NCBI GenBank assembly: GCA_963718615.1
Contig: OY970368.1
Location: 5,472,001 to 5,536,000 of the forward strand
Direction of reading: 5' to 3'
Source: an uncultured cyanobacterium
GTDB lineage: Bacteria > Cyanobacteriota > Cyanobacteriia > PCC-9006 > JAAUQQ01
DNA length: 64,000 bases
Positions 49,330 to 64,000 of this stretch are shown in pieces. Under the pieces are notes generated by a model. It was not told the origin of the DNA and made no database searches. It saw only the letters and a list, made by a program, of their open reading frames with translations. Numbering within the stretch: position 1 is the first letter of the stretch; every line of letters begins with the position of its first letter. Position numbers and translations under genes: made by a program.

Positions 49330-50088
49330 TCATCCGTGGCGAATAAATGCAGGGCCATAGGCTGCCGTTAGGGTATCTGGGTGTAGAACTTCCTCCGGGG
49401 AACCTTGATGAATCAACTGACGATTGAGACAAAGAACACAATCACAGTGGGTTCTGACCATATTTAAGTCATGGGAAATTTGTAAAATCGACCAGCCCTG
49501 TTCTCGTTTGAGTTGACTCAGTAAGGCATAAAACTCTGCTTCCCCTCGTACATCTAAGCCTGCGGGTGCTTCGTCCAGAATCAACAACTGTCGAGGACGA
49601 ATCAAGCAGTAGGCCAGTAATACTCGTTTGATTTCACCTCCTGATAAACTGCTGATAGCTTGGCGATGCAGATGGCTGGCTTCTACCTGGGCTAGCGCAA
49701 GCTGAACCGCATGGGATCGCTCTCGCCATCCCACCCAAGGAAGTTGCCAGCCTAATCGATCCCAGCCCAATCCCACCAGCTCCGCAACGGTCATGGGAAT
49801 CCGTTGATCAATCAAGAAGTTTTGTGGTAGGTAAGCAACATGATGGCGGAGCAAGGTTTCGGTCTTAGGACCCAGGCGTTGCCCCAGCAATGTAACCTGT
49901 CCAGCCTGATAGGGTAATAGCCCTAAAATAGCTTGAATCAGCGTACTTTTGCCTGCACCATTGGGGCCAATAATGGCCATGTCCATACCCGCAGGCAGCG
50001 AAAAAGAAATATCTTGGATAGCGGCTGTCTTTCCTCGATGGACGGTTAGACGTTCTACGGTCAGAATGGGAGGCATTGATGACATCAT
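49330..50088 (-). CDS. znuC: Zn/Mn ABC transporter ATPase
   Basis: GPNGAGKST, YLPQ, LSGGEIKRVLLA, LILDEA, ISHDL; downstream of znuA. Confidence 0.85.
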   Translation of the reverse strand: MMSSMPPILTVERLTVHRGKTAAIQDISFSLPAGMDMAIIGPNGAGKSTLIQAILGLLPYQAGQVTLLGQRLGPKTETLLRHHVAYLPQNFLIDQRIPMTVAELVGLGWDRLGWQLPWVGWRERSHAVQLALAQVEASHLHRQAISSLSGGEIKRVLLAYCLIRPRQLLILDEAPAGLDVRGEAEFYALLSQLKREQGWSILQISHDLNMVRTHCDCVLCLNRQLIHQGSPEEVLHPDTLTAAYGPAFIRHG

Positions 50089-50101
50089 AGGGGGGTTGGC
50101 A

Positions 50102-51148
50102 TCATGAGCCCGCAAAGGCTTGTTGCAGTTGAATAACATTCTCCCGCATGACGGTAAAGTAGGCATCGGGCCTAATACTATCCATCTCTCCCACTTCATT
50201 GGGCTGAAATGTACTGATGTTTACATTCAAATCTTGAGCTAAGGCCTGGAAGGGACCCGCTGTTGCTTGAGATTCAGTTAAGAGGGTTTTGAGCTCAGAT
50301 TTTTTTACGGCTTCCATGACTCGTTTGACATCATTAGGGGCAGGATTCTCTTCGGGAATTCCCACTAAAAATTCGACTTTTAAGCCATAGCGATCGGCAA
50401 AGTAATTGGCAAAGTCGTGATAGGTGACAAAGGTTTTACCTGCAAAGGGAGACAGGGTCTTCTGAATCTCCTGGTGAAGTGCTTCTAACTGTGCGTTATA
50501 GGTAGCAGCATTGGCCGTAAATTGTGCTTCACAAGTGGGCTGAGCTACGATCAAGCCATCGCGAATATTGTTCACTTGATCCATCGCTCGCACCGGATCT
50601 AACCAAATATGGGGATCGAATTCACCATGATCATGGCTCTCTGTTTCTTCGCCGTGATGTTCTGACTCTGTACCGTGATGATCATGCTCGCTCTCTACCA
50701 TGGGAATCAGATCGAGTCCTTCGCTACTATCAATAATCTTCAAGTTTGGATTGCCCGTATTCTCGATCATAGAGTCTAGAAAATGTTCAATTTCTAGGCC
50801 GTTTTGTACCAAGACATCTGCCTGTGACAGGCTTTGAGCATCACTGGGTTTAGCCTGATAATCGTGGGGACCAACATTGGTCGGCAAGAGTTGAGTGACC
50901 TCAGCGCAGTCACCCGCTACCGCTTTAGTGAACTGGGTCATGGGCAAAAATGTCGTTACAACCTTCAGCTTCTGCTCGCTGCTAGGGGCCGCATTATTGG
51001 CTAAGTCTTGAGCAGAGGTTTTGCCTGCGTTTTGGCCTGCGTTCTGGGCTACCTCTGGATTGGATTGGCCGGAGCAAGCACCTAGCACTAGGGCGATCGC
51101 CAGACCTAAAAATCGAACGTGAATGGATTGACCTTTAGCTAAAACCAT
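50102..51148 (-). CDS. znuA: Zinc ABC transporter substrate-binding lipoprotein
   Basis: Lipobox LGAC, GPHDY, His-rich loop, DPHIWLDP, TYHD; TTG 51166 is an alternative start. Confidence 0.88.
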   Translation of the reverse strand: MVLAKGQSIHVRFLGLAIALVLGACSGQSNPEVAQNAGQNAGKTSAQDLANNAAPSSEQKLKVVTTFLPMTQFTKAVAGDCAEVTQLLPTNVGPHDYQAKPSDAQSLSQADVLVQNGLEIEHFLDSMIENTGNPNLKIIDSSEGLDLIPMVESEHDHHGTESEHHGEETESHDHGEFDPHIWLDPVRAMDQVNNIRDGLIVAQPTCEAQFTANAATYNAQLEALHQEIQKTLSPFAGKTFVTYHDFANYFADRYGLKVEFLVGIPEENPAPNDVKRVMEAVKKSELKTLLTESQATAGPFQALAQDLNVNISTFQPNEVGEMDSIRPDAYFTVMRENVIQLQQAFAGS

Positions 51149-51156
51149 GGCTAAAA

Positions 51157-52272
<1,116 letters not shown>

Positions 52273-52280
52273 TTATTATA

Positions 52281-52301
52281 TGATAATGAAAATCATTATC
52301 A
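52281..52301. promoter_or_regulatory. Zur box (two overlapping)
   Basis: TGATAATGAAAATCATTATCA between divergent hemB and the fur-family gene; cyanobacterial Zur consensus TGATAATnATTATCA. Confidence 0.88.
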
Positions 52302-52355
52302 CTCAATTCGTCAAGAGAAAATGCTTCGTTTAGAAATGTTATTGAGAGGAAATCT

Positions 52356-52766
52356 GTGGTGAACCGGAGGTTAACGAGTAGTCAGATGTTGGTATACGAG
52401 GTGTTACAAGACACGTCTCTGGAATTAAGTGCTCAGGCGATTCATGCCGCTTTAGTTCGTCGCGGGCATGCCCGTGGCTTGGCAACGGTTTATCGGGCAT
52501 TGCGAGGGTTGCAATTGCTGGGGTTGGTGCGATCGCATTCCTTGCTCGCAGGAGAACAGGGATTTAGCTTGTGTCACAAAAACTCCCCCTACCTCACCTG
52601 TTTGCAATGCGGACAATCGGTATCTTTAGCAATGAGTCCGATGGAAAACTTTGTCCGACATCTTGCTCAACAAGCGAACTTTCTAGTCTATTACCACACG
52701 CTAGAGCTTATTGGGATCTGTTTGCCTTGTCAAGACAATATTCAAGGGGAACATCATCAAACGTAG
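52356..52766 (+). CDS. Fur-family regulator, Zur-like paralog
   Basis: LSAQ, GLATVYRAL, LTCLQCG, YYHTLE..GICLPC. Confidence 0.85.
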   Translation: MVNRRLTSSQMLVYEVLQDTSLELSAQAIHAALVRRGHARGLATVYRALRGLQLLGLVRSHSLLAGEQGFSLCHKNSPYLTCLQCGQSVSLAMSPMENFVRHLAQQANFLVYYHTLELIGICLPCQDNIQGEHHQT

Positions 52767-52768
52767 CC

Positions 52769-53404
52769 TTAGAAGTGGCGTTGATTTTGAATCGCTTCAA
52801 GGTCGCAAGTCCCGGTCTCCGCACAGCGATACCCGGCTAAAAGTGCCTTGTTAATCTCGACCACATGGTGGGAAAACTTTTGGTCGTGGGGTTTCGCATT
52901 TGGAAGACGATCGGCCTGTTGCTGATGCACAATGATTGATCCGGATGGAACATACTTTCCAGGCAGAATTTCTACATCCTGGATGAGTGCATGCATCATG
53001 ACGATGCAACCTTGACCGACCTTGGCATTAAAGACTGTGGAACGAAAGCCGATAAAACAATTATCGCCTACGTAGGCTGGTCCGTGAATTAGAGCCATGT
53101 GAGTAATACAGGTATTTCGACCAATCCAGACTGAATACAATTGTTGATCATCTCCAGTGACACGACCTTCCTCGAGGCCATGAATGACGACGCCATCTTG
53201 AATATTGCTGCGATCGCCAATGTGAAAGGGGGTCCCTTCATCCGCTCGAATCGAGCAATGGGGAGCAATCAGTACGCCTTCGCCAATGTGAATATCACCA
53301 ATGAGACTAGAGGCCGGATGAACATAGGCGGATGGGTGAGCTTGGGGACGATCTGTACTTTGGTCCCAGGGGGTTGGTGGTGCAGGTTGATAACGGAGTG
53401 GCAT
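52769..53404 (-). CDS. Stand-alone CcmM-type gamma-carbonic anhydrase (no SSUL repeats)
   Basis: [52 protein letters not shown]; ends just after the CA domain. Confidence 0.88.
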
Positions 53405-53477
53405 AGAAATGAAGCTTGCAGATGGATGGTATTTAAGGCACTGAAAACCAAACGTTGAGTTGAATGACCGGGAACCC

Positions 53478-53954
53478 TTAAAGTTGAGTTGGATTAGGTG
53501 CATCGCCATACACCTGTTGCGGATCGAAGGTTTTTTCTAACTCAGTAAAGTGCAGTGTGATCGACTGGGCTACTGCGTCCCCCAGCGGAATTTCACGATA
53601 GAAACAAGAATGATATCCCACATGACAGCTTGCCCCAGTTCCAGCCACATCGACTTTCATCCAGAGGCAATCTTGATCATCGTCAATCAGCAGTTGTCGA
53701 ACATGCTGAATCAGCCCACTGGTCGCCCCCTTATGCCAAAGAACCTGACGACTGCGGCTGTAGTAATGGGCTTCGCGGGTGACGATTGTGCGCCGTAGTG
53801 CTTCGGCATTCATGTATCCCTGCATGAGCACTTCGCCGCTGGAGGCGTTGGTGGTGATCACGGGGATTAATCCTTGGGCATCGAACCTTGGGGCAAGGCT
53901 GGTGCTTTCTTCAACTTGCTGAACGGACTGCCGCTGCGAAAAGGGGAAACTCAT
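53478..53954 (-). CDS. hisI: Phosphoribosyl-AMP cyclohydrolase paralog
   Basis: [47 protein letters not shown]. Confidence 0.92.
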
Positions 53955-53989
53955 GGCCAGAAAACGACATAGAATAATGATGGATAGTT

Positions 53990-54004
53990 TGATAATGATT
54001 ATCA
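53990..54004. promoter_or_regulatory. Zur box
   Basis: Perfect TGATAATGATTATCA, 35 bp upstream of hisI. Confidence 0.92.
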
Positions 54005-54077
54005 TTTCTATTGTAGGGTACCATGGCGCTCTAACGCCGAGTGGTGCTAAATTGACGCCTAAGCACACCGTTCTAGG

Positions 54078-54986
54078 GTGATTGATGAGTTCCGTTCTGA
54101 AATTGTGAAAACACCAGTTTGTTGCTTTAGCGCTGTTCTGGGCTTTGGTCTGGGTTCTGTTTTCAGCCTGGGAGGTTTGTCGGCGATCGCCTACGAAGTC
54201 ACCCTAAGCCCCAGCAGCCCCCAACTGGGTGACACCCTCAGCGTTGACATTCGAGCCGAGCAGCCCAACTCTACCGAGCCGCCCCAGGTGCAGGTCGGCA
54301 GCAAAACCTATCCCAGCTTTGCTCTTCCCGGTCGTGGTTTACCCCAGTTTCGGGCCTTGATTCCGACGAGCCCTTTAGATAAGCCAAGCCGGTTGGTGGT
54401 ACAAGTCAGTGGTCAGGACAGAACCCGTAATCTGGCGGTGGAGTTGCGGGGGCGATCGTTCCGCACCCAGAGCATTTGGTTGCCCCCCGGAGATGACGAT
54501 TTGGGGACGGATTTTGAGTTCGATCGCGTCGATGCCTTCAAGCAACTGGTGAGCCCAGAACGCCACTGGTCTGGGCCGTTGCTGCGTCCGAGTGCAGGCT
54601 CAATCACGACGGAGTATGGGGTTCAGCGTTATTACAACGGCAAATTTGCGGATGACTACTACCACCGAGGGGTGGATTATGCCGCGCCCACGGGCACGCC
54701 TGTGGTGGCTCCGGCGGCGGGCTACGTGCGTTTGGTGGGGCGCGAGGCCGAGGGCTTTGAAATCCATGGCAATACCATTGGGGTTGACCATGGCCAGGGG
54801 GTGCTGAGTATTATGATTCACCTCAGCCGCATTGATGTGAAGGAGGGGGATTTCGTGACGGCGGGGCAGCGCATTGGGGCGATCGGCAATACGGGGGCTT
54901 CAACCGGGCCTCATCTCCATTGGGGTCTCTATGTCCATGGGGTGGCGGTTGATCCAGTGCCCTGGCGAACCACCGGTGTAGAGTAG
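54078..54986 (+). CDS. M23 family metallopeptidase
   Basis: HRGVD, DHG, GNTGASTGPHLHW. Confidence 0.92.
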   Translation: MIDEFRSEIVKTPVCCFSAVLGFGLGSVFSLGGLSAIAYEVTLSPSSPQLGDTLSVDIRAEQPNSTEPPQVQVGSKTYPSFALPGRGLPQFRALIPTSPLDKPSRLVVQVSGQDRTRNLAVELRGRSFRTQSIWLPPGDDDLGTDFEFDRVDAFKQLVSPERHWSGPLLRPSAGSITTEYGVQRYYNGKFADDYYHRGVDYAAPTGTPVVAPAAGYVRLVGREAEGFEIHGNTIGVDHGQGVLSIMIHLSRIDVKEGDFVTAGQRIGAIGNTGASTGPHLHWGLYVHGVAVDPVPWRTTGVE

Positions 54987-55015
54987 TCCATTCTTCGCAG
55001 TACCCAGGTCAAGAC

Positions 55016-55663
55016 TCATTCATCTACTGCTTTGTCGAGGAGCATTATAGAAAGCTTGCATCGCTCCCTGATCGAAGTTTTTTGCGGTGCATACAGGTAG
55101 AAGAAATGACTCTTGGTCTGGGCTAGAAATCCCTCCTGTTGCAGTTGTTTCAATAGTCGAGTTGTTGTCACGCGTGTACTGCCCACAAAGTCTGCAATCA
55201 TTTGGTGCGTGAGACGCAAGTTGATCAGCATTCCGGTTTCTGTGCGTTCACCAAATCGTGAACCTAACCACATGAATAAACGCTCAATTCGCTGCATGAC
55301 TGGACCGTGACGCAAGGTTAGGAGAACTTGAGTCTGTTTAACTTGGTTAAGGGACTGATGTACCCATAGATCCGGGGTGAGGGTGCTGATCGGAACAACC
55401 GTGACCTGGGTAATGCTCTCAACTTCAAGGGCATCCTGGGGAACCAAGGGAAATCCCAGTAAGTCACCTTGGCTCCAGATACCGACGGGGATGAGCGTAC
55501 CGTCTTCGGCGAGAATGCAGGTGAGGATGAAGCCCTGAGTGATTTGCCAAAATCCATGTTGAGGTAGCTGTAATCGTTCTCTACGTTGAAAAGTGATGGT
55601 TTGAGGCTCTCGATTTGGCAGTGCGTACTCTGGGCAATCACCACTCATGTCTCTAACTTTCAT
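55016..55663 (-). CDS. Crp/Fnr-family transcriptional regulator
   Basis: LTHQMIADFVGSTRVTTTRLL HTH; start uncertain (55648-55741). Confidence 0.85.
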   Translation of the reverse strand: MKVRDMSGDCPEYALPNREPQTITFQRRERLQLPQHGFWQITQGFILTCILAEDGTLIPVGIWSQGDLLGFPLVPQDALEVESITQVTVVPISTLTPDLWVHQSLNQVKQTQVLLTLRHGPVMQRIERLFMWLGSRFGERTETGMLINLRLTHQMIADFVGSTRVTTTRLLKQLQQEGFLAQTKSHFFYLYAPQKTSIRERCKLSIMLLDKAVDE

Positions 55664-55751
55664 CAGTGAGCTTTTCCATCGGGGTAACTCATTTTGTTCC
55701 TGCTGCTGCCAAGAATCACCTAGCCCTAATAAATCATCCATAAAATGGTGC

Positions 55752-56027
55752 CTAGGAATCGTTTAGATTCTCATTGTTCTGAAAAGCTTTGATTAAATCG
55801 ACTGGCTCGATCTCAGCCACAGCTTTATGAACCTTAAACTGCCTAACGGGATCTGTCATGACTGTAATTGCCGTTTCAATGGGAGGACAGTGAGGTTCAT
55901 GGCACTGTAATTGGCTAATTGAGATCACGATTTCTTCCTCAACATGGAGAAGTTCAAAGAGCCAACTTTTCAGTTGTTCGACTTGAGCGGGTTCGGCTTT
56001 GAGCGGTTGAGATGAAAAGAGATTCAT
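55752..56027 (-). CDS. Small hypothetical protein with CxEPxCPP motif
   Basis: QLKSW...ISISQLQCHEPHCPPIETAI. Confidence 0.75.
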   Translation of the reverse strand: MNLFSSQPLKAEPAQVEQLKSWLFELLHVEEEIVISISQLQCHEPHCPPIETAITVMTDPVRQFKVHKAVAEIEPVDLIKAFQNNENLNDS

Positions 56028-56150
56028 GGTTACGATAGGTTTTGGATAAGCTGAAATAGATTGCTTCAGACCTTGATAAGACTGAGTTCATGAGACTGAG
56101 TTCAACCAACTGGAACTCAAGACATTGAGAAATAGTGAGGATGGAAAGCT

Positions 56151-58007
56151 TTAGATGAGAGATTTTTGGGCGATCGCCTCCTGCATTTTGTCGATGAGCA
56201 CTTGAAGCTTTAAGCAGCCTAAATCTCCCCCCATTCGGGTCCGAACACTGAGGGTTTCGCTCTCTACCTCTCGTTTGCCAATTACCGCAATCACAGGGAT
56301 TTTTTCAAGTTCTGCGGTTCGAATCATTTTGCCGAGGCGATCGCCACTCTGATCCACCTCTGCCCGAAATCCTTGTTTTTTTAACTGCTGAACCCATTGA
56401 TCTGCATAGTCCCGCTGTTTATCACTCACGGGCAATAGCCTGACTTGTACCGGAGCCAACCACAGCGGAAAAAGGCCCGCATAGTTCTCAATTAAAATGC
56501 CAAAGAATCGCTCTAGGGAACCGAAGATGGCGCGGTGAATCATGATGGGTCGTTTCCGTGAACCGTCCGCTGCGACATATTCCATGTCAAACCGTTCTGG
56601 CAAGTTGAAATCCACCTGAATGGTAGAACATTGCCACAGACGACCAATGGCATCGCGAATTTTGATGTCAATCTTGGGACCATAGAAAGCCCCGCCCCCT
56701 TCATCCGTGAGGTAGGGCCACCCCTTGGTTTCTAATGCTTCGATCAACGCAGCGGTGGCCAATTGCCAAATCTCATCCCCACCGACGGATTTCTCTGGTC
56801 GAGTTGAAAGATTGACTTCATAATCCTGGAAGCCAAAGTCTGAGAGGATTTTTTCCGTGAGGTCTAGAACGCCTAAAATTTCAACGGCGACCTGATCGGG
56901 TAAACAGAAAATATGCGCATCATCCTGAGTAAATCCGCGAACGCGCATCAACCCGTGGAGCGTGCCAGATCGCTCGTAGCGATAGACTGTGCCGAGTTCT
57001 GCCCAACGCAGGGGAAACTCCCGATAGGAATGGAGATCATGCTGGTAGGTCAACACATGAAAGGGGCAATTCATGGGTTTGAGCTGATAGGCTTGCTCCT
57101 CCACATCAATGGCATCAAACATGCCATCTCGATAGAAATCAAAATGGCCCGAGGTTTTCCAAAGCTCTAGGTTGGCCAGATGGGGGGTGAACAATAGCTC
57201 ATAGCCTGCCTCCGTATGAGCCTGCCGCCAATAGTCTTCGATCACACGGCGAATTCTTGCGCCCTTAGGGTGCCAAAACACCAAGCCGCCCCCCGCTTGC
57301 TCTTCAATGCTGAAGAGCTTTAGTTCTTGGCCCAACTTGCGATGATCCCGCCGTTTAGCCTCCTCTTTTTGTTGGAGATAGCTTTGGAGCTGTTCTGGAG
57401 TTTCCCAAGCGGTGCCATACACCCGCTGTAACTGTGCCTTGGTTTCGTCACCTCGCCAATAGGCTCCGGCCACACTTTCCAAGGCAAAGGCCTGGGGATT
57501 GATCTGCCCCGTCCGGGTCAAATGGGGGCCAGCACAGAGATCCCACCAGCAGGGGTGGGGGGGAATGACGACTGGGTGAATCAGAGACGGTTCGACTTCC
57601 GGGTGATTGGTCCAACCGCTGTCAGGGCAGCCGATGAAATAGCGACTAATGACGGCCTCCTCTGGGAGACTATCAAGAATTTCGAGCTTGTAGGGTTCGT
57701 TGAGTTGCTCAATTTCCGCCTTAATGGCTGTGCGATCAACAGTTTCTTGAATGATGGGCAGATCCGCTTTGATGATTTGCCGCATTTCCAGCTCAATCTG
57801 CTCTAGATCCTCTGGGGTGAAGGGAGTGGGGCAATCAAAATCGTAGTAGAAGCCAGTCTCCGTCCAGGGGCCAAGGGTCACCTTCGCCTCCGGAAAGAGT
57901 CGCTGCACGGCCATGGCGAGAACATGGGAGCAGGTGTGGCGAATCCGCTGGAGCTGGTCAGCGACCTCAGGAAGAGGTGAGAGTTGAACAAAAGCAGGAT
58001 GGGACAT
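56151..58007 (-). CDS. thrS: Threonyl-tRNA synthetase (Zur-regulated thrS2 type)
   Basis: RHTCSHVLA, DLCAGPH, RDHRKLG, KPMNCP, RVRGFTQDDAH, FYGPKID, IHRAIFGSLERF. Confidence 0.96.
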   Translation of the reverse strand: MSHPAFVQLSPLPEVADQLQRIRHTCSHVLAMAVQRLFPEAKVTLGPWTETGFYYDFDCPTPFTPEDLEQIELEMRQIIKADLPIIQETVDRTAIKAEIEQLNEPYKLEILDSLPEEAVISRYFIGCPDSGWTNHPEVEPSLIHPVVIPPHPCWWDLCAGPHLTRTGQINPQAFALESVAGAYWRGDETKAQLQRVYGTAWETPEQLQSYLQQKEEAKRRDHRKLGQELKLFSIEEQAGGGLVFWHPKGARIRRVIEDYWRQAHTEAGYELLFTPHLANLELWKTSGHFDFYRDGMFDAIDVEEQAYQLKPMNCPFHVLTYQHDLHSYREFPLRWAELGTVYRYERSGTLHGLMRVRGFTQDDAHIFCLPDQVAVEILGVLDLTEKILSDFGFQDYEVNLSTRPEKSVGGDEIWQLATAALIEALETKGWPYLTDEGGGAFYGPKIDIKIRDAIGRLWQCSTIQVDFNLPERFDMEYVAADGSRKRPIMIHRAIFGSLERFFGILIENYAGLFPLWLAPVQVRLLPVSDKQRDYADQWVQQLKKQGFRAEVDQSGDRLGKMIRTAELEKIPVIAVIGKREVESETLSVRTRMGGDLGCLKLQVLIDKMQEAIAQKSLI

Positions 58008-58073
58008 CGACGTCTGAGAGAATCCCTACGAGAGCAATGCACTTGGAATACACCCTTGCGATCATAACATTTT

Positions 58074-58088
58074 TGATAATGATTATCA
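58074..58088. promoter_or_regulatory. Zur box
   Basis: Perfect TGATAATGATTATCA, 66 bp upstream of thrS. Confidence 0.92.
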
Positions 58089-58398
58089 TTCTTGTTGATG
58101 GAAAGCCATCAATTGGGTTGGCTTTGGCGGCTTCAAGGTGAGAGGATGTTTGAGAATAGCTGAGGCTGTGGCCATTTTCGCCATTACTCCCTGGCTTGCA
58201 CCGAAGCATCAGGCCATTCTGAGCTAGCCAAGGTATCAATTCCTGCAACTTGGCGCATTCTTAAACATCCTCTGAAAGATGTCACCCAACTATCCTCCCT
58301 CAGGGGATCTCTTATCCCCCCTAGGGGTATTGTTGTGTGTCAACCTTAGCATTTAGGGTTAGGGGAAGATTGCAAACATTTTTTGGGAGTCTTGTCTC

Positions 58399-58998
58399 AT
58401 GGCCTACGAATTACCGGCATTGCCCTATGACTACAATGCCCTAGATCCATACATTTCAAAAAGCACTTTAGAATTTCACCATGACAAGCACCATGCTGCC
58501 TATGTGAGTAAATTTAATCAGGCCATCCAGGGAACGGATTGGGATCAAATGCCCATTGAAAAAGTGATTCAGGCGATCGCAGGGGATGCCGATAAGACTG
58601 CCATTTTTAACAACGCGGCCCAAGCCTGGAACCATACCTTCTATTGGAACAGTATGAAACCAGGGGGAGGAGGGATGCCCAGCGGAGAATTAATGAAGAA
58701 AATTGAAGCTGATTTTGGGGGCTTTGAGTCATTTGCAGAAGCCTTTAAAAATGCAGGAGCTACACAATTTGGCAGTGGTTGGGCTTGGTTGGTGCTAGAA
58801 GGTCGCACCCTCAAGGTCACAAAAACCCTCAATGCAGATAATCCCCTCACCCAAGGACAAGTCCCTCTGCTCACGATGGATGTTTGGGAACATGCCTATT
58901 ATTTGGATTATCAAAATAAGCGCCCCGACTACATTGAAACGTTCTTGGGAAATCTCGTGAACTGGGAATTTGCAGCTCAAAATTTAGCTGCGGCCTAA
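58399..58998 (+). CDS. sodB: Fe superoxide dismutase
   Basis: HHDKHHAAY, FNNAAQAWNH (Fe-type), FGSGWAW, DVWEHAYY. Confidence 0.95.
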   Translation: MAYELPALPYDYNALDPYISKSTLEFHHDKHHAAYVSKFNQAIQGTDWDQMPIEKVIQAIAGDADKTAIFNNAAQAWNHTFYWNSMKPGGGGMPSGELMKKIEADFGGFESFAEAFKNAGATQFGSGWAWLVLEGRTLKVTKTLNADNPLTQGQVPLLTMDVWEHAYYLDYQNKRPDYIETFLGNLVNWEFAAQNLAAA

Positions 58999-59126
58999 GC
59001 TTTTGTGCGGTTTCAGAGTCTTGACCCGATGTATGGGTGCAGGACACTGCTTGAACTGGAAAACTGACGATCCGATGGCTCTGTCCAAGCGGTAGAGCCT
59101 GATTCTTCATCCCCGTTGAGCCCACC

Positions 59127-59345
59127 ATGATTTTGAATCCTGACTTTCCTCATATTGTCTGGTCATTTCCCTATCGCGGCTGGCGATTGGAGGTAGATCG
59201 GAGCGAAAATGATGGGCAAGTTGTATATGCTGTTTGGGCTAATCATGAGGGAGGGACGGCGATCGCAGTGCCCTGTGCTTTGACCCGTGAAGAGGCCATC
59301 AAGCGCGCCAAGCACTATGTCGATTCCCGAATCAGCGCTGATTAG
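59127..59345 (+). CDS. Small hypothetical protein
   Basis: 72-aa ORF with YRGWRLEV...YAVWA...AIAVP...EAIKRAK.YVD. Confidence 0.6.
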   Translation: MILNPDFPHIVWSFPYRGWRLEVDRSENDGQVVYAVWANHEGGTAIAVPCALTREEAIKRAKHYVDSRISAD

Positions 59346-60418
59346 AACATTCGCCAAATCAACCATTCCCCCGCCTGCCCTCCAGCCACCAAAAACTGCC
59401 CTGAAGGATGCCACGCGACGGTAGAAAATCCCTGCATCGTGGCCTCAATTATTTGGCTTAAAATATGGCCCTTGCGCCAAAGCCCCAGAGAGCCATCCGC
59501 CGAGGCCGTGGCGAGTAACAAACTTTGGGGATGAAAGGCGATCGCCTCCACCCGTTCTGTATGCAACTCCAGTAATCGTGCCTCCCAGCCAATCGCATCA
59601 TCCTCGGATTTTTGCCACAGGACAATATCTTGGCTACTGGCACTCGCCAATAATGGAGCCTGACCCGACAGCACTGGGCTCCAGACGAGCTGCCTCACCT
59701 TCCCCGGAAAGCCCCCCATGCGCCAAGGATTCTCACTGTTGCCCTGTTGCCAGACCCAGAGCGTCCGGTCGAGATTGCCTGAGGCTAAGTATTGACCTTC
59801 TGGTGAGCAGGCGATCGCCAGCCCCGCAGAGGGCATCTCTAAAATCTGCGGTTCCCGGTCCCAATCGCCAGCCTTCCAAATTTTGACGCCCTGCTGTCCA
59901 CTGACGGCGAGCCAGTGCCCCGCCGGGTGCCATTGCAGATCTAATACTGACGACTGCTCAAAATCCACCGTCATCACGACAGCCTGGTCGATCGCATCCC
60001 AAACCTGAACATAATGACCCAAACTGAACGCCAGCTCAGGCTTGCAAGGATTCCAGGCTAGGCGATCGACCCAGACCCGTGGATGTTCAAGTTGGGTGAG
60101 CAGCGTCGGCCCCTCTTTGGAATCAGCTTGGATTGGCATCGACCACAGATACAGACATCCCTCCTGACCCCCGGCTGCCAGAAATCGGCCATCGGCGGAA
60201 AATTCTAAGGTATCGATGGAAGATCCCTGCGGTTCCGTCAATGGATGCAGAGACAATTCTTCCCCTAGCCAATGGCCCCAAACCACCTCACCCGCCGCAG
60301 AAGCAAGGGCAATGACTTGGCCCGTGGGAGACCAGGCGATCGCCGTGATGTAGTCCTGTAAATGGCCCTGGCTATGGGGGGTTACCAGGGTTTGCAGGGG
60401 TGCTCTTACTGTATACAT
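59342..60418 (-). CDS. WD40-repeat protein (COG0523-associated)
   Basis: Repeated AWSP/FSADG/WHP..G motifs; overlaps the COG0523 gene. Confidence 0.9.
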   Translation of the reverse strand: MYTVRAPLQTLVTPHSQGHLQDYITAIAWSPTGQVIALASAAGEVVWGHWLGEELSLHPLTEPQGSSIDTLEFSADGRFLAAGGQEGCLYLWSMPIQADSKEGPTLLTQLEHPRVWVDRLAWNPCKPELAFSLGHYVQVWDAIDQAVVMTVDFEQSSVLDLQWHPAGHWLAVSGQQGVKIWKAGDWDREPQILEMPSAGLAIACSPEGQYLASGNLDRTLWVWQQGNSENPWRMGGFPGKVRQLVWSPVLSGQAPLLASASSQDIVLWQKSEDDAIGWEARLLELHTERVEAIAFHPQSLLLATASADGSLGLWRKGHILSQIIEATMQGFSTVAWHPSGQFLVAGGQAGEWLIWRMF

Positions 60419-61380
60419 GCGCAGAAGTCCCGCCGAAGTTGTTCTCCATCTAAGTCACGACCGATAAACACCAATTCATTCTTGCGCGTTTCGTTAGACT
60501 TCCAGGGGCGATCGGGTTGTCCATCGAAGAGCATATGTACCCCTTGAAACACAAAGCGTTGATCCTCTCCGGCAATATTCAAAATGCCCTTCATCCGAAA
60601 GATGTTTGTGCCTTGGGTTTGTAGCAAATGGCTCAGCCAATCATTCAACTTCACGCCATCCAATTCTCCTGCTTCCACGATAGCTACAGACCCCACCGAA
60701 TCATCATGCTCATGGGCATGTTCTTCCTCTAAAAACTCAGGCTCAATTTCCAAGGCTCGGTTGAGATCAAAGGCTTTGACTCCTAAGATTGCATCCATTT
60801 CAACCGCAGCATCCTGGGTCCGATAAATCTTGGCCATGGCATTCATGGCACGAATTCGCTGCTCTAGGGCAATTAAATCTGCCTCTTCCACGAGATCCGT
60901 TTTATTCAGCAAGATTACATCGGCAAAGGCTAATTGTTCCTGGGCTTCATCGGCTTCCCAATGCTGATGGATATGTTTGGCATCTACTACGGTGACCACA
61001 GCATCCAAGGCGAGTTGGCCTCGCATATCCTCATCAACAAAGAAGGTCTGAATGACAGGAGCTGGGTCTGCCAAGCCGGTCGTCTCAATGACCAGATGAT
61101 CAAACTTGTTTCGACGCTTCATTAAGTTGCCAATAATGCGAATCAAATCCCCTCGCACCGTACAGCAAATACAGCCATTGTTCATTTCAAAGATTTCTTC
61201 ATCGGCATCAATGACCAACTGGTTATCAATGCCGACCTCGCCAAACTCATTGACGATCACCGCAATCTTTTGACCATGCTCATGGGTGAGAATGCGGTTG
61301 AGCAGCGTTGTCTTGCCTGCTCCCAGATAGCCCGTGAGAACCGTGACGGGCACAACGCTTTCTTCGTATGCAATGCTCAT
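60406..61380 (-). CDS. COG0523/CobW-family GTPase metallochaperone
   Basis: TGYLGAGKTT, VNEFGEVGID, NGCICC, ETTGLADP, NKTD, short HAHEH. Confidence 0.95.
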   Translation of the reverse strand: MSIAYEESVVPVTVLTGYLGAGKTTLLNRILTHEHGQKIAVIVNEFGEVGIDNQLVIDADEEIFEMNNGCICCTVRGDLIRIIGNLMKRRNKFDHLVIETTGLADPAPVIQTFFVDEDMRGQLALDAVVTVVDAKHIHQHWEADEAQEQLAFADVILLNKTDLVEEADLIALEQRIRAMNAMAKIYRTQDAAVEMDAILGVKAFDLNRALEIEPEFLEEEHAHEHDDSVGSVAIVEAGELDGVKLNDWLSHLLQTQGTNIFRMKGILNIAGEDQRFVFQGVHMLFDGQPDRPWKSNETRKNELVFIGRDLDGEQLRRDFCACIQ

Positions 61381-61393
61381 AGCCGCCCTGGAT

Positions 61394-61414
61394 TGAAAAT
61401 GATTATCGATATCA
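61394..61414. promoter_or_regulatory. Zur box (degenerate, overlapping pair)
   Basis: TGAAAATGATTATCGATATCA immediately upstream of the COG0523 gene. Confidence 0.7.
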
Positions 61415-61494
61415 AATAATATAGAGCAGGTTAGGGCTGAGGGCTACAAAGAATCATTACGGGGAATCATGGCAGACCCCTAGAGAGAATGGGT

Positions 61495-62559
<1,065 letters not shown>

Positions 62560-62589
62560 AGAGATCCAGAAATGAAAAGGAGAGAAGAA

Positions 62590-63597
62590 TTAGAAATGGC
62601 TAATACAGTTGTTGAGTCGTTGCTGAAGCTCCAATCTATTCAACTGTTTGCCAATAAAAACAAGTTGATTGATAGGTTCACGTTTGAGAGAAATCACATC
62701 GAGGCTAAATCGTTTTCCACTGAGCTGAAAAACGTAGTGGGGCTCTTGCCCTGCAAACCACAGAATTCCCTTAGCTCGATAAACAGTTTCTGGTAGATAA
62801 TCCGTCAGAAACAACTGAAACCGCTGTACGTCCAAGGGATACTGACTCGTGAAGGAGAACGACACAAAGCCGTCTTGATTCAAATGATTGGCGGAAGCCA
62901 AAGCGGGCGAAGGCGAACCCGTGGAGAGATCTTGCGGATCAAGGAGCTCCACCTCAGATCCTCCTAACCCTAGAATGACCGGCAATGGAACCTTTCCCCG
63001 TTCACAGCGAATAATCCTTGCCCCTTCTCGATAGTTATGGCATTGTTGCTCAATGCCTTCTAGCCTTTGTGTATCAACTAAGTCAACCTTGTTGAGCAAT
63101 AAAATATCGCCGTAGGTCAACTGACTCAGGGCAGCTTGACTGTTAAACAGATCAAGGGAGAAGTTTTCTGCATCAATGACCGTCAGAATACTATCAAGAT
63201 GCGTCAAGTCCCTCAGCTCCGATGATAGGAGGGTCAAGGCAATGGGAAGAGGATCCGCAAGACCCGTGGTTTCGATGACCATGTAGTCTACGCGATCGCT
63301 CCGCTCCATTACACTATAGATGGTGTCAACTAAGCTATCATTAATTGTGCAACAAATGCACCCATTGCTCAACTCCATCATATCTTCTTCTAAGGCAACC
63401 AAGAGTTGAGAGTCAATATTAATATCGCCAAATTCATTCACAAGAACGGCTACTTTTAGCGCTTGTCGATTATTCAAAATATGATTGACTAGGGTCGTTT
63501 TTCCACTGCCGAGAAACCCTGTAATAATCGTGATGGGAAGGCCGCATTTGGCTAGATTTAGTTCTAAATCTTGAGCGGCTTTAGTGGCTTGGAACAT
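62590..63597 (-). CDS. COG0523 GTPase without His-rich insert
   Basis: TGFLGSGKTT, NGCICC, ETTGLADP, NKVD. Confidence 0.95.
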   Translation of the reverse strand: MFQATKAAQDLELNLAKCGLPITIITGFLGSGKTTLVNHILNNRQALKVAVLVNEFGDINIDSQLLVALEEDMMELSNGCICCTINDSLVDTIYSVMERSDRVDYMVIETTGLADPLPIALTLLSSELRDLTHLDSILTVIDAENFSLDLFNSQAALSQLTYGDILLLNKVDLVDTQRLEGIEQQCHNYREGARIIRCERGKVPLPVILGLGGSEVELLDPQDLSTGSPSPALASANHLNQDGFVSFSFTSQYPLDVQRFQLFLTDYLPETVYRAKGILWFAGQEPHYVFQLSGKRFSLDVISLKREPINQLVFIGKQLNRLELQQRLNNCISHF

Positions 63598-63658
63598 AGG
63601 ATTTTATGAGATAGTTTTCTCTGTTTTTATGATTTCCAGAAAAATCAAAATCTGTTGG

Positions 63659-64000
63659 CTATAGGGGCAAAATGTGAAGATTTGGAATTGCGATCGCCCC
63701 CAAAAACAGCGCCAGCTGAACGACGACGATACTGGGGCCAGAGGGTAGATTGAAGAGGGCAGAAAGCAGAATGCCGGCGATCGCGCTACTCCCACCTAGC
63801 AGGGATGAAAGCAATACATACTGACTAAACTGACGACTCACTAACCTTGCAGTACAAGCGGGAATCACAACAAAGGCACTGACTAGCAAAACACCGACTG
63901 ATTTAATCGCAACTGCAACCATCAAAGACAACAAAATGACAAAAGCAAGGCGATGTGCATAGACAGAAATTCCTCGAGCCTTCGCTAAAGATTCATTAAG
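63659..64000 (-). CDS. znuB: Metal ABC transporter permease (5' end outside the window)
   Basis: LNESLAKARG, IKSVGVLLVSAFVVIPA, LPSGPSIV. Confidence 0.85.
   Translation of the reverse strand, partial: LNESLAKARGISVYAHRLAFVILLSLMVAVAIKSVGVLLVSAFVVIPACTARLVSRQFSQYVLLSSLLGGSSAIAGILLSALFNLPSGPSIVVVQLALFLGAIAIPNLHILPL

Follow-up and report, generated by a model that had tools for sequence, protein, structure and literature searches.

A Zur paralog lacking three of the four known zinc-sensing ligands, divergent from hemB2 in a cyanobacterial zinc-starvation island

The window, that is, the whole stretch of 64,000 nucleotides analyzed here, belongs to an uncultured cyanobacterium whose genome is assembled as one contig of 6.10 Mb (OY970368.1; the window spans positions 5,472,001 to 5,536,000). 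It carries a gene for a Fur-family protein that resembles Zur, but in which three of the four sensory zinc ligands of the structurally characterized Zur of Synechococcus WH8102 (SynZur) are replaced. The protein is referred to as a Zur paralog, and not as Zur, because the defining sensory site of Zur is missing. Judged from its sequence, it is not able to sense zinc in the manner of SynZur. Regulation by this protein is probably not coupled to zinc by the known sensing mechanism, and its mode of action may be that of a constitutive operator binder, a heterodimer modulator or a sensor of another signal. Zur is regarded as the only sensor of zinc starvation in cyanobacteria, and it was not until 2022 that its unusual sensory site was defined. 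A naturally occurring protein that is under selection without this site offers a test of what the site is for, and of whether a Fur-family repressor can become locked "on" or "off" in evolution.

The open reading frame (ORF) of the paralog, as given in the ORF list of the window, runs from position 52356 to 52766 on the plus strand, starts with GTG and encodes 136 amino acids in an intact frame. Position 52281, which the preliminary description of this DNA had given as the left end of the gene, falls into the intergenic operator. A longer ORF from an ATG at 52280 was rejected, as it lies in another frame and meets a stop at 52333. The product has the winged-helix DNA-binding domain and the C-terminal dimerization domain of the Fur family, as recognized by Pfam FUR (PF01475; 54.1 bits against a cut-off of 23.1, profile positions 5–120 of 121) and by an AlphaFold2 model (mean predicted local distance difference test score of 79.5) that adopts the Fur-family fold. 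Foldseek matches this model to solved Zur, Fur and PerR structures with a probability of 1.00, and the best solved relative of the paralog is SynZur (PDB code 7NE9; E value 3.8e-15). In a comparison with NCBIfam, neither the paralog nor the canonical Zur of the genome rose above any equivalog cut-off.

The sensory site of SynZur is formed by D77, H79, C95 and H115, and is described as its sole sensory site; the structural site is formed by C83, C86, C123 and C126, and Arg78 is proposed to relay the occupancy of the sensory site to the DNA-binding domain (PMC9337993). The alignment to 7NE9 places N76, P78, S94 and H114 of the paralog at the four sensory positions, of which only H114 is a retained ligand. 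The segment DRHH of SynZur reads NSPY in the paralog, and HCPI reads MSPM, which bears out the earlier observation that Asp, His and Cys residues of the regulatory zinc site are missing (DxHH changed to NSPY, and CPV to SPM). Proline is incapable of acting as a metal ligand, and asparagine and serine are poor ones. A SynZur-type sensory site is impossible in the paralog because three of its four ligands are replaced. By contrast, all four cysteines of the structural site are retained (C82, C85, C122 and C125), and are predicted to bind zinc, and the motifs GLATVYRAL and YYHTLE are both present. The elements of the gene are located as follows.

52356–52766, plus strand: zinc-sensor-less Zur paralog, Fur family, 136 amino acids, preceded by the Shine-Dalgarno-like stretch GAGAGGA
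52476–52517, plus strand: recognition helix G41–L54 (GLATVYRALRGLQL), with 12 of its 14 residues the same in all four members of the clade described below
52572–52592, plus strand: hinge and former sensory strand C73-H74-K75-N76-S77-P78-Y79, with N76/S77/P78 in place of D77/R78/H79 of SynZur
52635–52637, plus strand: codon of S94, at the position of SynZur Cys95 in the alignment
52695–52697, plus strand: codon of H114, at the position of SynZur H115 inside YYHTLE, the only sensory ligand kept

The inter-domain site that is canonical for non-cyanobacterial Zurs, made up of a carboxylate from the DNA-binding domain, a Cys of the hinge and an HxH on strand one of the dimerization domain, is likewise incomplete. 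The paralog has a cysteine in the hinge, C73, but the positions of the His pair are occupied by S77 and Y79, and the equivalent of the Asp is Arg59. C73 aligns with the hinge Cys of FurB from Mycobacterium tuberculosis (...YRRCSEHHHHH), for whose inter-domain ligands we assume the customary numbering.

A canonical Zur is encoded elsewhere in the same genome, in agreement with the earlier proposal that the gene is a paralog and not the only zur. This protein (L003; P0030) has the complete set of ligands (...KADRHHLTCLQCG...DHCPVH...YYHTLEF), lies 3.77 Mb from the paralog and shares 41% identity with it by BLASTP. The genome has five Fur-family genes, which include a FurA-like gene (L001) and a PerR/FurC-like gene (L002). 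The fifth (L004, positions 1390–1959 of that locus, genome C1:3309283-3309852) encodes a protein of 189 amino acids with a Pfam FUR score of 76 bits, a long N-terminal extension and an acidic, Pro-rich tail; it has no CxxC, with SHSHVNCLD at the first site.

A BLASTP search of 5.8 billion clustered proteins returned three proteins with 56–67% identity to the paralog (P0002, P0003 and P0004), all with intact reading frames; the other matches had at most 49% identity. Besides the window's genus, the clade thus defined covers a single genome from a sister genus and two proteins from metagenomes. The replacements at the sensory site are common to its four members: His79 is replaced by Pro in all of them, Cys95 by Ser or Asn, and Asp77 by Asn or Ala. 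The equivalent of Arg78 is Ser77 in the paralog, and Ser or Thr across the clade, and that of Arg62, which belongs to the salt-bridge network, is His, Tyr or Arg (positions counted by hand). The SynZur-type relay is therefore not present as such. Residues that are specific to the clade are Cys73, His or Glu at position 74, and the segments EQGF and FLVYYH.

The ortholog of the sister genus (L006 in G001, the metagenome-assembled genome of Synechococcales cyanobacterium CRU_2_2) occupies the same locus position. It is divergent from a hemB2-znuA-znuB-...-COG0523 array, hisI-like and gamma-carbonic-anhydrase-like genes lie downstream, and in either genome the gene begins with GTG and is preceded by a Shine-Dalgarno-like stretch. 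Between the two genomes, the proportions of nonsynonymous and synonymous differences (pN and pS) are 0.30 and 0.78 for the paralog over 126 codons, 0.124 and 0.70 for the canonical Zur, and 0.130 and 0.71 for hemB2. As synonymous sites are saturated (pS 0.70–0.78), and dS is undefined for the target pair, pN, pS and the nonsynonymous distance dN are reported here in place of a proper dN/dS. An open frame with a pN of 0.30 over such a distance is, therefore, not unconstrained. Conservation within the clade is greatest in the recognition helix (12/14 residues invariant), followed by the YYHTLE strand (10/14), and is low in helix α5 (3/12); both CxxC pairs are kept. The part of the recognition helix from G41 to R47 is invariant in all 17 Zur-type sequences aligned. 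With pN far below pS, and synteny kept in a second genus, the pattern is one of purifying selection, and the pseudogene-like decay that the preliminary description had considered as a refutation of its proposal is absent. The substitution data thus indicate that the paralog is kept by selection and is not decaying.

The paralog shares its upstream region with a porphobilinogen synthase gene, hemB2. The two genes are divergent, as had been noted earlier, and are separated by an operator.

52281–52301, no strand: Zur/Fur-box operator, a perfect 9-3-9 palindrome, TGATAATGA-AAA-TCATTATCA
52275–52302, minus strand: promoter-like site for hemB2, with -35 GTGATA, a spacer of 16 nucleotides and -10 TATAAT (10 of 12 matches, by consensus scan only)
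51157–52251, minus strand: hemB2, porphobilinogen synthase of the Asp-rich zinc-independent type (Pfam ALAD; DVALDPY..GHDG)

The preliminary description spoke of a double Zur box. The operator is one 9-3-9 palindrome; the double reading holds to the extent that the sequence also accommodates a pair of overlapping 7-1-7 motifs, one with 2 mismatches and the other with 1. It corresponds to a one-mismatch form of what we take to be the consensus of the classical 19-bp Fur box, and overlaps the -35 element and spacer of the promoter-like site for hemB2. When the intergenic region of the window is compared with that of L006, the palindrome is the sole block that is conserved, and it is identical in both. 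The 6.1-Mb genome has two exact copies of the 19-mer, each ahead of znu genes, compared with about 4e-5 occurrences expected by chance (calculated by hand). The second copy lies 514 bp past the end of the window (genome C1:5536514-5536537; positions 514–537 of L017), before znuB and three COG0523 genes. The two copies are identical over 24 bases, with the ACTCA flank included, and the 19-mer is also found in G001 and in a further genome, G002, which is an unusually strict conservation for an operator.

A second Zur next to hemB2 is not particular to this genome. With the paralog as the query (E value of at most 1e-12), a Zur-type match was found in 385 of 401 cyanobacterial genomes, and two or more matches in 71 of them, about one in six; the latter number is a hand count from the match table that is consistent with the 463 matches reported. 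In a sample of 201 genomes from other families across the whole phylum, G012 and G034 were, apart from the window's genome, the only ones with two copies. Forty loci were fetched for comparison, 39 of them from 19 genomes with two copies, both within the top 150 matches listed, and one from G431. Of these loci, 21 lie within 3 kb of hemB2, znuA, znuC, COG0523 or thrS2, and 16 adjoin hemB2; in 15 of the 16, zur is divergent from hemB2 with a Zur box (0–2 mismatches) between the two genes. G012 has the arrangement zur, box and hemB2-znuA-znuC-znuB with an intergenic region of 47 bp, alongside a second, unlinked Zur. Of the 40 loci, 37 have the full set of sensory ligands, the exceptions being L040, L059 and L042. 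To judge from these gene orders, the divergent module of zur, box and hemB2 is widespread in cyanobacteria, many filamentous ones among them, normally with a ligand-complete second Zur. A related arrangement is found in a sister genus (L028, G004:C40:60000-74000), where a ligand-complete second Zur is divergent from a COG0523 gene across a Zur box. That COG0523 gene is 85% identical to positions 60406–61380 of the window, and on its other side the Zur gene converges on an operon of hydrolase-znuB-znuC-znuA; the stretch has no hemB2.

Phylogenetic analysis places the clade of the paralog inside the cyanobacterial Zur group, split from the HHHH-type Zurs with support values in the Shimodaira-Hasegawa-like approximate likelihood ratio test (SH-aLRT) of 97 in a tree of 91 rows and 99 in a tree of 70 rows. 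The latter was computed from 66 proteins hand-picked out of 202 and four proteins translated from loci, with near-duplicates, fragments and very long branches left out. The clade is monophyletic (SH-aLRT 99) and emerges on a long stem at the basal polytomy of the cyanobacterial Zur group. In the tree of 70 rows, the copies of G012 and G004 that are linked to a box form one clade, "type B" (SH-aLRT 95), and a second group, "type A", holds the unlinked Zurs of G001, G004 and the window's genome; the two labels were given after the tree was viewed. From its position and orientation, the paralog is most likely a sensor-less descendant of a box-linked second Zur.

Loss of sensory residues has occurred in other Zur-type proteins as well. 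Among the 110 rows listed out of 202, at least six representatives are without two or more sensory ligands (P0055, P0064, P0073, P0082, P0084 and P0085), and of five ligand-deficient representatives outside the clade of the paralog, four (P0064, P0073, P0082 and P0084) fall in type B. Single defects are found in further Zur copies that are extra or linked to an island, namely those at L040 (G385:C51; His79 to Leu) and L059 (G348:C271; His115 to Tyr), and the third Zur copy of another genome (L042, G413:C27) has an in-frame stop codon. The alignments thus indicate that erosion of the sensory site recurs among Zur-type proteins. In a 3.8-Mb, 99%-complete cyanobacterial genome, the sole Zur-type match (G075:C1:2056377-2056727) contains six stops and is an apparent zur pseudogene.

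A second Zur that is wired divergently to hemB2 and the znu genes across a Zur box suggests a two-tier zinc regulation in these organisms. We propose, as a tentative reading that falls somewhat short of being probable, that the paralog is a functional Fur-family regulator derived from the box-linked second Zur that has lost the zinc switch, has retained DNA binding and has a second-tier role. The paralog would still dimerize and bind Zur-box-like DNA without a zinc switch. The former metal pocket (N/A76, P78, S/N94 and L110), together with the remodeled hinge (C73 and E/H74), would fix one conformation, with Leu110 predicted from the alternation of the β-strand to lie on the same face as H114. 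The true Zur would probably derepress the paralog in zinc starvation, because the intergenic operator is shared with hemB2-znuAC. The paralog would then regulate the same operators at a second tier and independently of zinc, either as a brake on the starvation response or as a modulator of it. We infer both the way in which it would shift the response and how it is itself controlled. The recognition helix is the best conserved part of the protein in the clade, which speaks rather for a DNA-binding protein. The more general proposal, that a circuit of an unlinked Zur and an autoregulated Zur divergent from hemB2/znu is common in filamentous cyanobacteria, and that here its box-linked copy is sensor-dead, is induced through Zur in starvation and acts zinc-free on the same operators as a brake, pulse generator or anti-repressor, is possible but rather doubtful. 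If true, the repeated partial erosion in other box-linked copies would represent a recurring evolutionary route, and not a one-off.

Several observations weigh against the reading of a DNA-binding second-tier regulator. The C95A variant of SynZur has one zinc and is still a dimer, but shows no meaningful binding to the znuA promoter (PMC9337993, legend of Extended Data Fig. 5). The paralog is, therefore, expected to be a non-binder unless it has acquired compensating changes. Because of this loss of promoter binding, the main piece of counter-evidence, a non-binding protein that acts through heterodimers is a serious rival, although we consider it unlikely. According to this explanation, the paralog would not bind DNA alone, but would form heterodimers with the canonical Zur via the YYHTLE strand as a dominant-negative partner, as the preliminary description had suggested, or as one that shifts the set point; once derepressed in starvation, it would titrate Zur or weaken repression, with positive feedback. 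A stable one-zinc dimer without promoter binding is what C95A represents, the paralog has the equivalent loss plus two more, and its dimerization strand VYYHTLE is identical to that of the genome's canonical Zur. A pure poison would nevertheless need no recognition helix, yet this helix is the best conserved element, with 12 of its 14 residues invariant, and helix α5 differs strongly from that of the canonical Zur. Helix α5 also packs in Fur-family dimers.

The control of the paralog by the box is also less certain than the preliminary description had it. No promoter-like site for the paralog was found by the consensus scan on the plus strand of the intergenic region, and the distance between box and start codon is not conserved, being 54 bp in the window and about 100 bp in the L006 ortholog. 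Induction of the paralog in starvation via the Zur box is thus plausible, by analogy with the relatives that have an intergenic region of 47 bp, rather than established. In addition, G002 (93% complete) carries the identical box immediately ahead of znuA, and a search of this genome with the target as the query did not find the paralog; the box is, therefore, an ordinary Zur operator that is not private to the paralog. Nor do the approximately unbiased (AU) tests decide on its descent, since trees that join the clade to type B (p 0.324) or to type A (p 0.206) are not rejected. Because tree and AU tests do not decide, the descent from a box-linked Zur rests on position and orientation.

The same side of the balance holds the rarity and the rate of evolution of the paralog. 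In an exhaustive search of 1.84 billion representatives, the target itself scored 254.5 bits and the next match 131.2, the clade forming a single 50% cluster. Matches of more than 50% identity were present in only two of the 401 cyanobacterial genomes (the window's genome and G001), and a scan of Joint Genome Institute metagenomes with clade-specific peptides gave 131 stretches that fit the pattern, none of which encodes a relative. Between the window's genome and G001, the evolutionary rate of the paralog is about 2.8 times that of the canonical Zur (dN 0.38 versus 0.135). Such a rate is compatible with a redundant duplicate that is drifting to loss, whose site has eroded since the canonical Zur suffices and which has little or no function left. 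The absence of a detected copy from G002, a congener of a paralog-bearing genome, and the recurrence of ligand erosion in the six representatives, in L040 and L059, and in L042 with its stop, point in the same direction. We regard this explanation as very improbable. No stop or frameshift has arisen since the split of the orthologs, pN is 0.30, the recognition helix and the Cys4 site are intact, and synteny and start context are kept. As the three ligand losses are common to all four members, they predate a split that is deep enough to saturate synonymous sites (pS 0.78). These shared, ancient losses and the constraint since then make simple decay unlikely.

A further explanation concerns the hinge. 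Cys73, together with His or Glu at position 74, might replace the zinc switch, either in a weaker metal site with His114 or as a redox or thiol switch, so that the paralog would be the sensor of another signal and would resemble the non-metal-sensing offshoots of other metal-sensor families. Offshoots without a metal site exist in such families. C73 is invariant in all four members of the clade, but invariance over four sequences is weak evidence. Among the 110 rows listed out of 202, Cys at position 73 is confined to the clade and to rows of the HHHH type, the other cyanobacterial-type rows having a different residue or a gap; C73 coincides with the hinge Cys of non-cyanobacterial Zurs such as FurB of M. 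tuberculosis. Both residues found at position 74 are possible ligands, and H114 is kept. A conserved set of four ligands is, on the other hand, not discernible, as positions 76 (N/A), 79 (Y/H) and 94 (S/N) vary and HxH is absent. We rate the sensing of another signal as improbable.

SynZur has the same domain order as the paralog, the Cys4 site, the recognition helix ATVYR and the equivalent His115, and the canonical inter-domain site is absent in the paralog as in all cyanobacterial Zurs (7NE9; PMC9337993). The two differ by Asn, Pro and Ser in place of Asp77, His79 and Cys95, by Ser in place of Arg78 and by the Cys in the hinge. The C95A variant, in which the sensory Cys is gone as well, is the nearest experimental stand-in for the paralog. 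It is an engineered single change, whereas the paralog has three ligand changes, a remodeled hinge and selective retention, and its behavior may differ. The type B Zurs (G012, L027, 4681–5094; P0007, P0011 and P0016) are also transcribed away from hemB2-znuA-znuC(-znuB), with a Zur box in between, and coexist with a second, unlinked Zur, but they keep the sensory ligands and have only 40–49% identity to the paralog. In Anabaena sp. PCC 7120, the gene all4725 is presumably a hemB paralog. Its upstream region is a site of high-affinity Zur binding (PMC10957091, PMC3323870). The regulon of the Anabaena Zur (FurB, All2473) resembles the surroundings of the paralog, with ZnuABC, COG0523 and zinc-independent paralogs, but these reports describe a single Zur and do not mention a sensor-less partner (PMC10957091, PMC3323870).

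Haem sensing in the manner of Irr, considered on account of the hemB neighbor, was rejected, since hemB2 is the zinc-sparing isozyme of a Zur island and the paralog has no Cys-Pro motif. Irr of rhizobia is a haem-responsive Fur-family regulator that is linked to the regulation of hemB and is no longer a classic metal-corepressed repressor. It senses haem via a Cys-Pro motif and His-rich motifs, and is without the Cys4 site. The paralog differs by the lack of any Cys-Pro dipeptide in its 136 amino acids and by the retention of Cys4, and the Irr models of NCBIfam gave no score for it, the canonical Zur being scored weakly. In the literature that was searched, neither a sensor-less Zur nor a module of two Zurs was found to be described for cyanobacteria; proteins of this kind are known from other families, and the present variant, with its wiring, is new. 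A "single exception" to the conservation of the ligands is mentioned with Supplementary Fig. 4 of the SynZur report, and such a sequence may, therefore, already have been noticed (PMC9337993).

The paralog and hemB2 lie in a zinc-starvation island that extends over about 27 kb and contains at least six Zur boxes, at positions 52282, 53991, 58075 and 61395 of the window and at 5536514 and 5550730 of the genome. The features next to the divergent pair are the following.

50102–51166, minus strand: znuA, periplasmic zinc-binding protein with a His-rich loop (Pfam ZnuA, 244.8 bits)
49330–50199, minus strand: znuC, ABC ATPase (Pfam ABC_tran)
52769–54068, minus strand: hisI-like and gamma-carbonic-anhydrase-like (hexapeptide) genes, convergent with the paralog (Pfam PRA-CH, Hexapep)

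The true start of znuC is probably later, as the listed ORF start overlaps znuA. The boxes at 53991, 58075 and 61395 have 0–1 mismatch to the 13-base core; the core at 53991–54003, ahead of the hisI-like and gamma-carbonic-anhydrase-like genes, is perfect. The genes behind the boxes of the island are hemB2-znuA-znuC, the hisI-like and gamma-carbonic-anhydrase-like pair, a gene for an M23 peptidase, three COG0523 genes, znuB, and thrS2, which is transcribed divergently from a gene for an Fe/Mn superoxide dismutase. A second hemB in this genome carries TDTCLCEY..GHCG, the Cys-rich motif of the zinc type, and both Zn and non-Zn variants of HemB occur in Zur regulons (PMC2770081). Paralogs of HisI, gamma-carbonic anhydrase, HemB and ThrRS, together with COG0523 proteins, are classic members of these regulons (PMC2770081, PMC10957091).

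The stop codon of the paralog is 2 bp from that of the convergent gamma-carbonic-anhydrase-like gene (52766/52769), and no terminator-like site was found in the scan. Read-through from the Zur-box-controlled hisI operon would run antisense to the paralog. At the L006 locus, a convergent WD40 ORF overlaps the 3' end of the paralog by 32 bp. The island itself (positions 52769–64000 of the window and genome C1:5536001-5551000, L017) also holds a WD40 gene, and a cytochrome b561-like gene is divergent from its last box. A gene for a Crp-family regulator is located on the minus strand at positions 55016–55741 of the window, between the M23 peptidase gene and thrS2.

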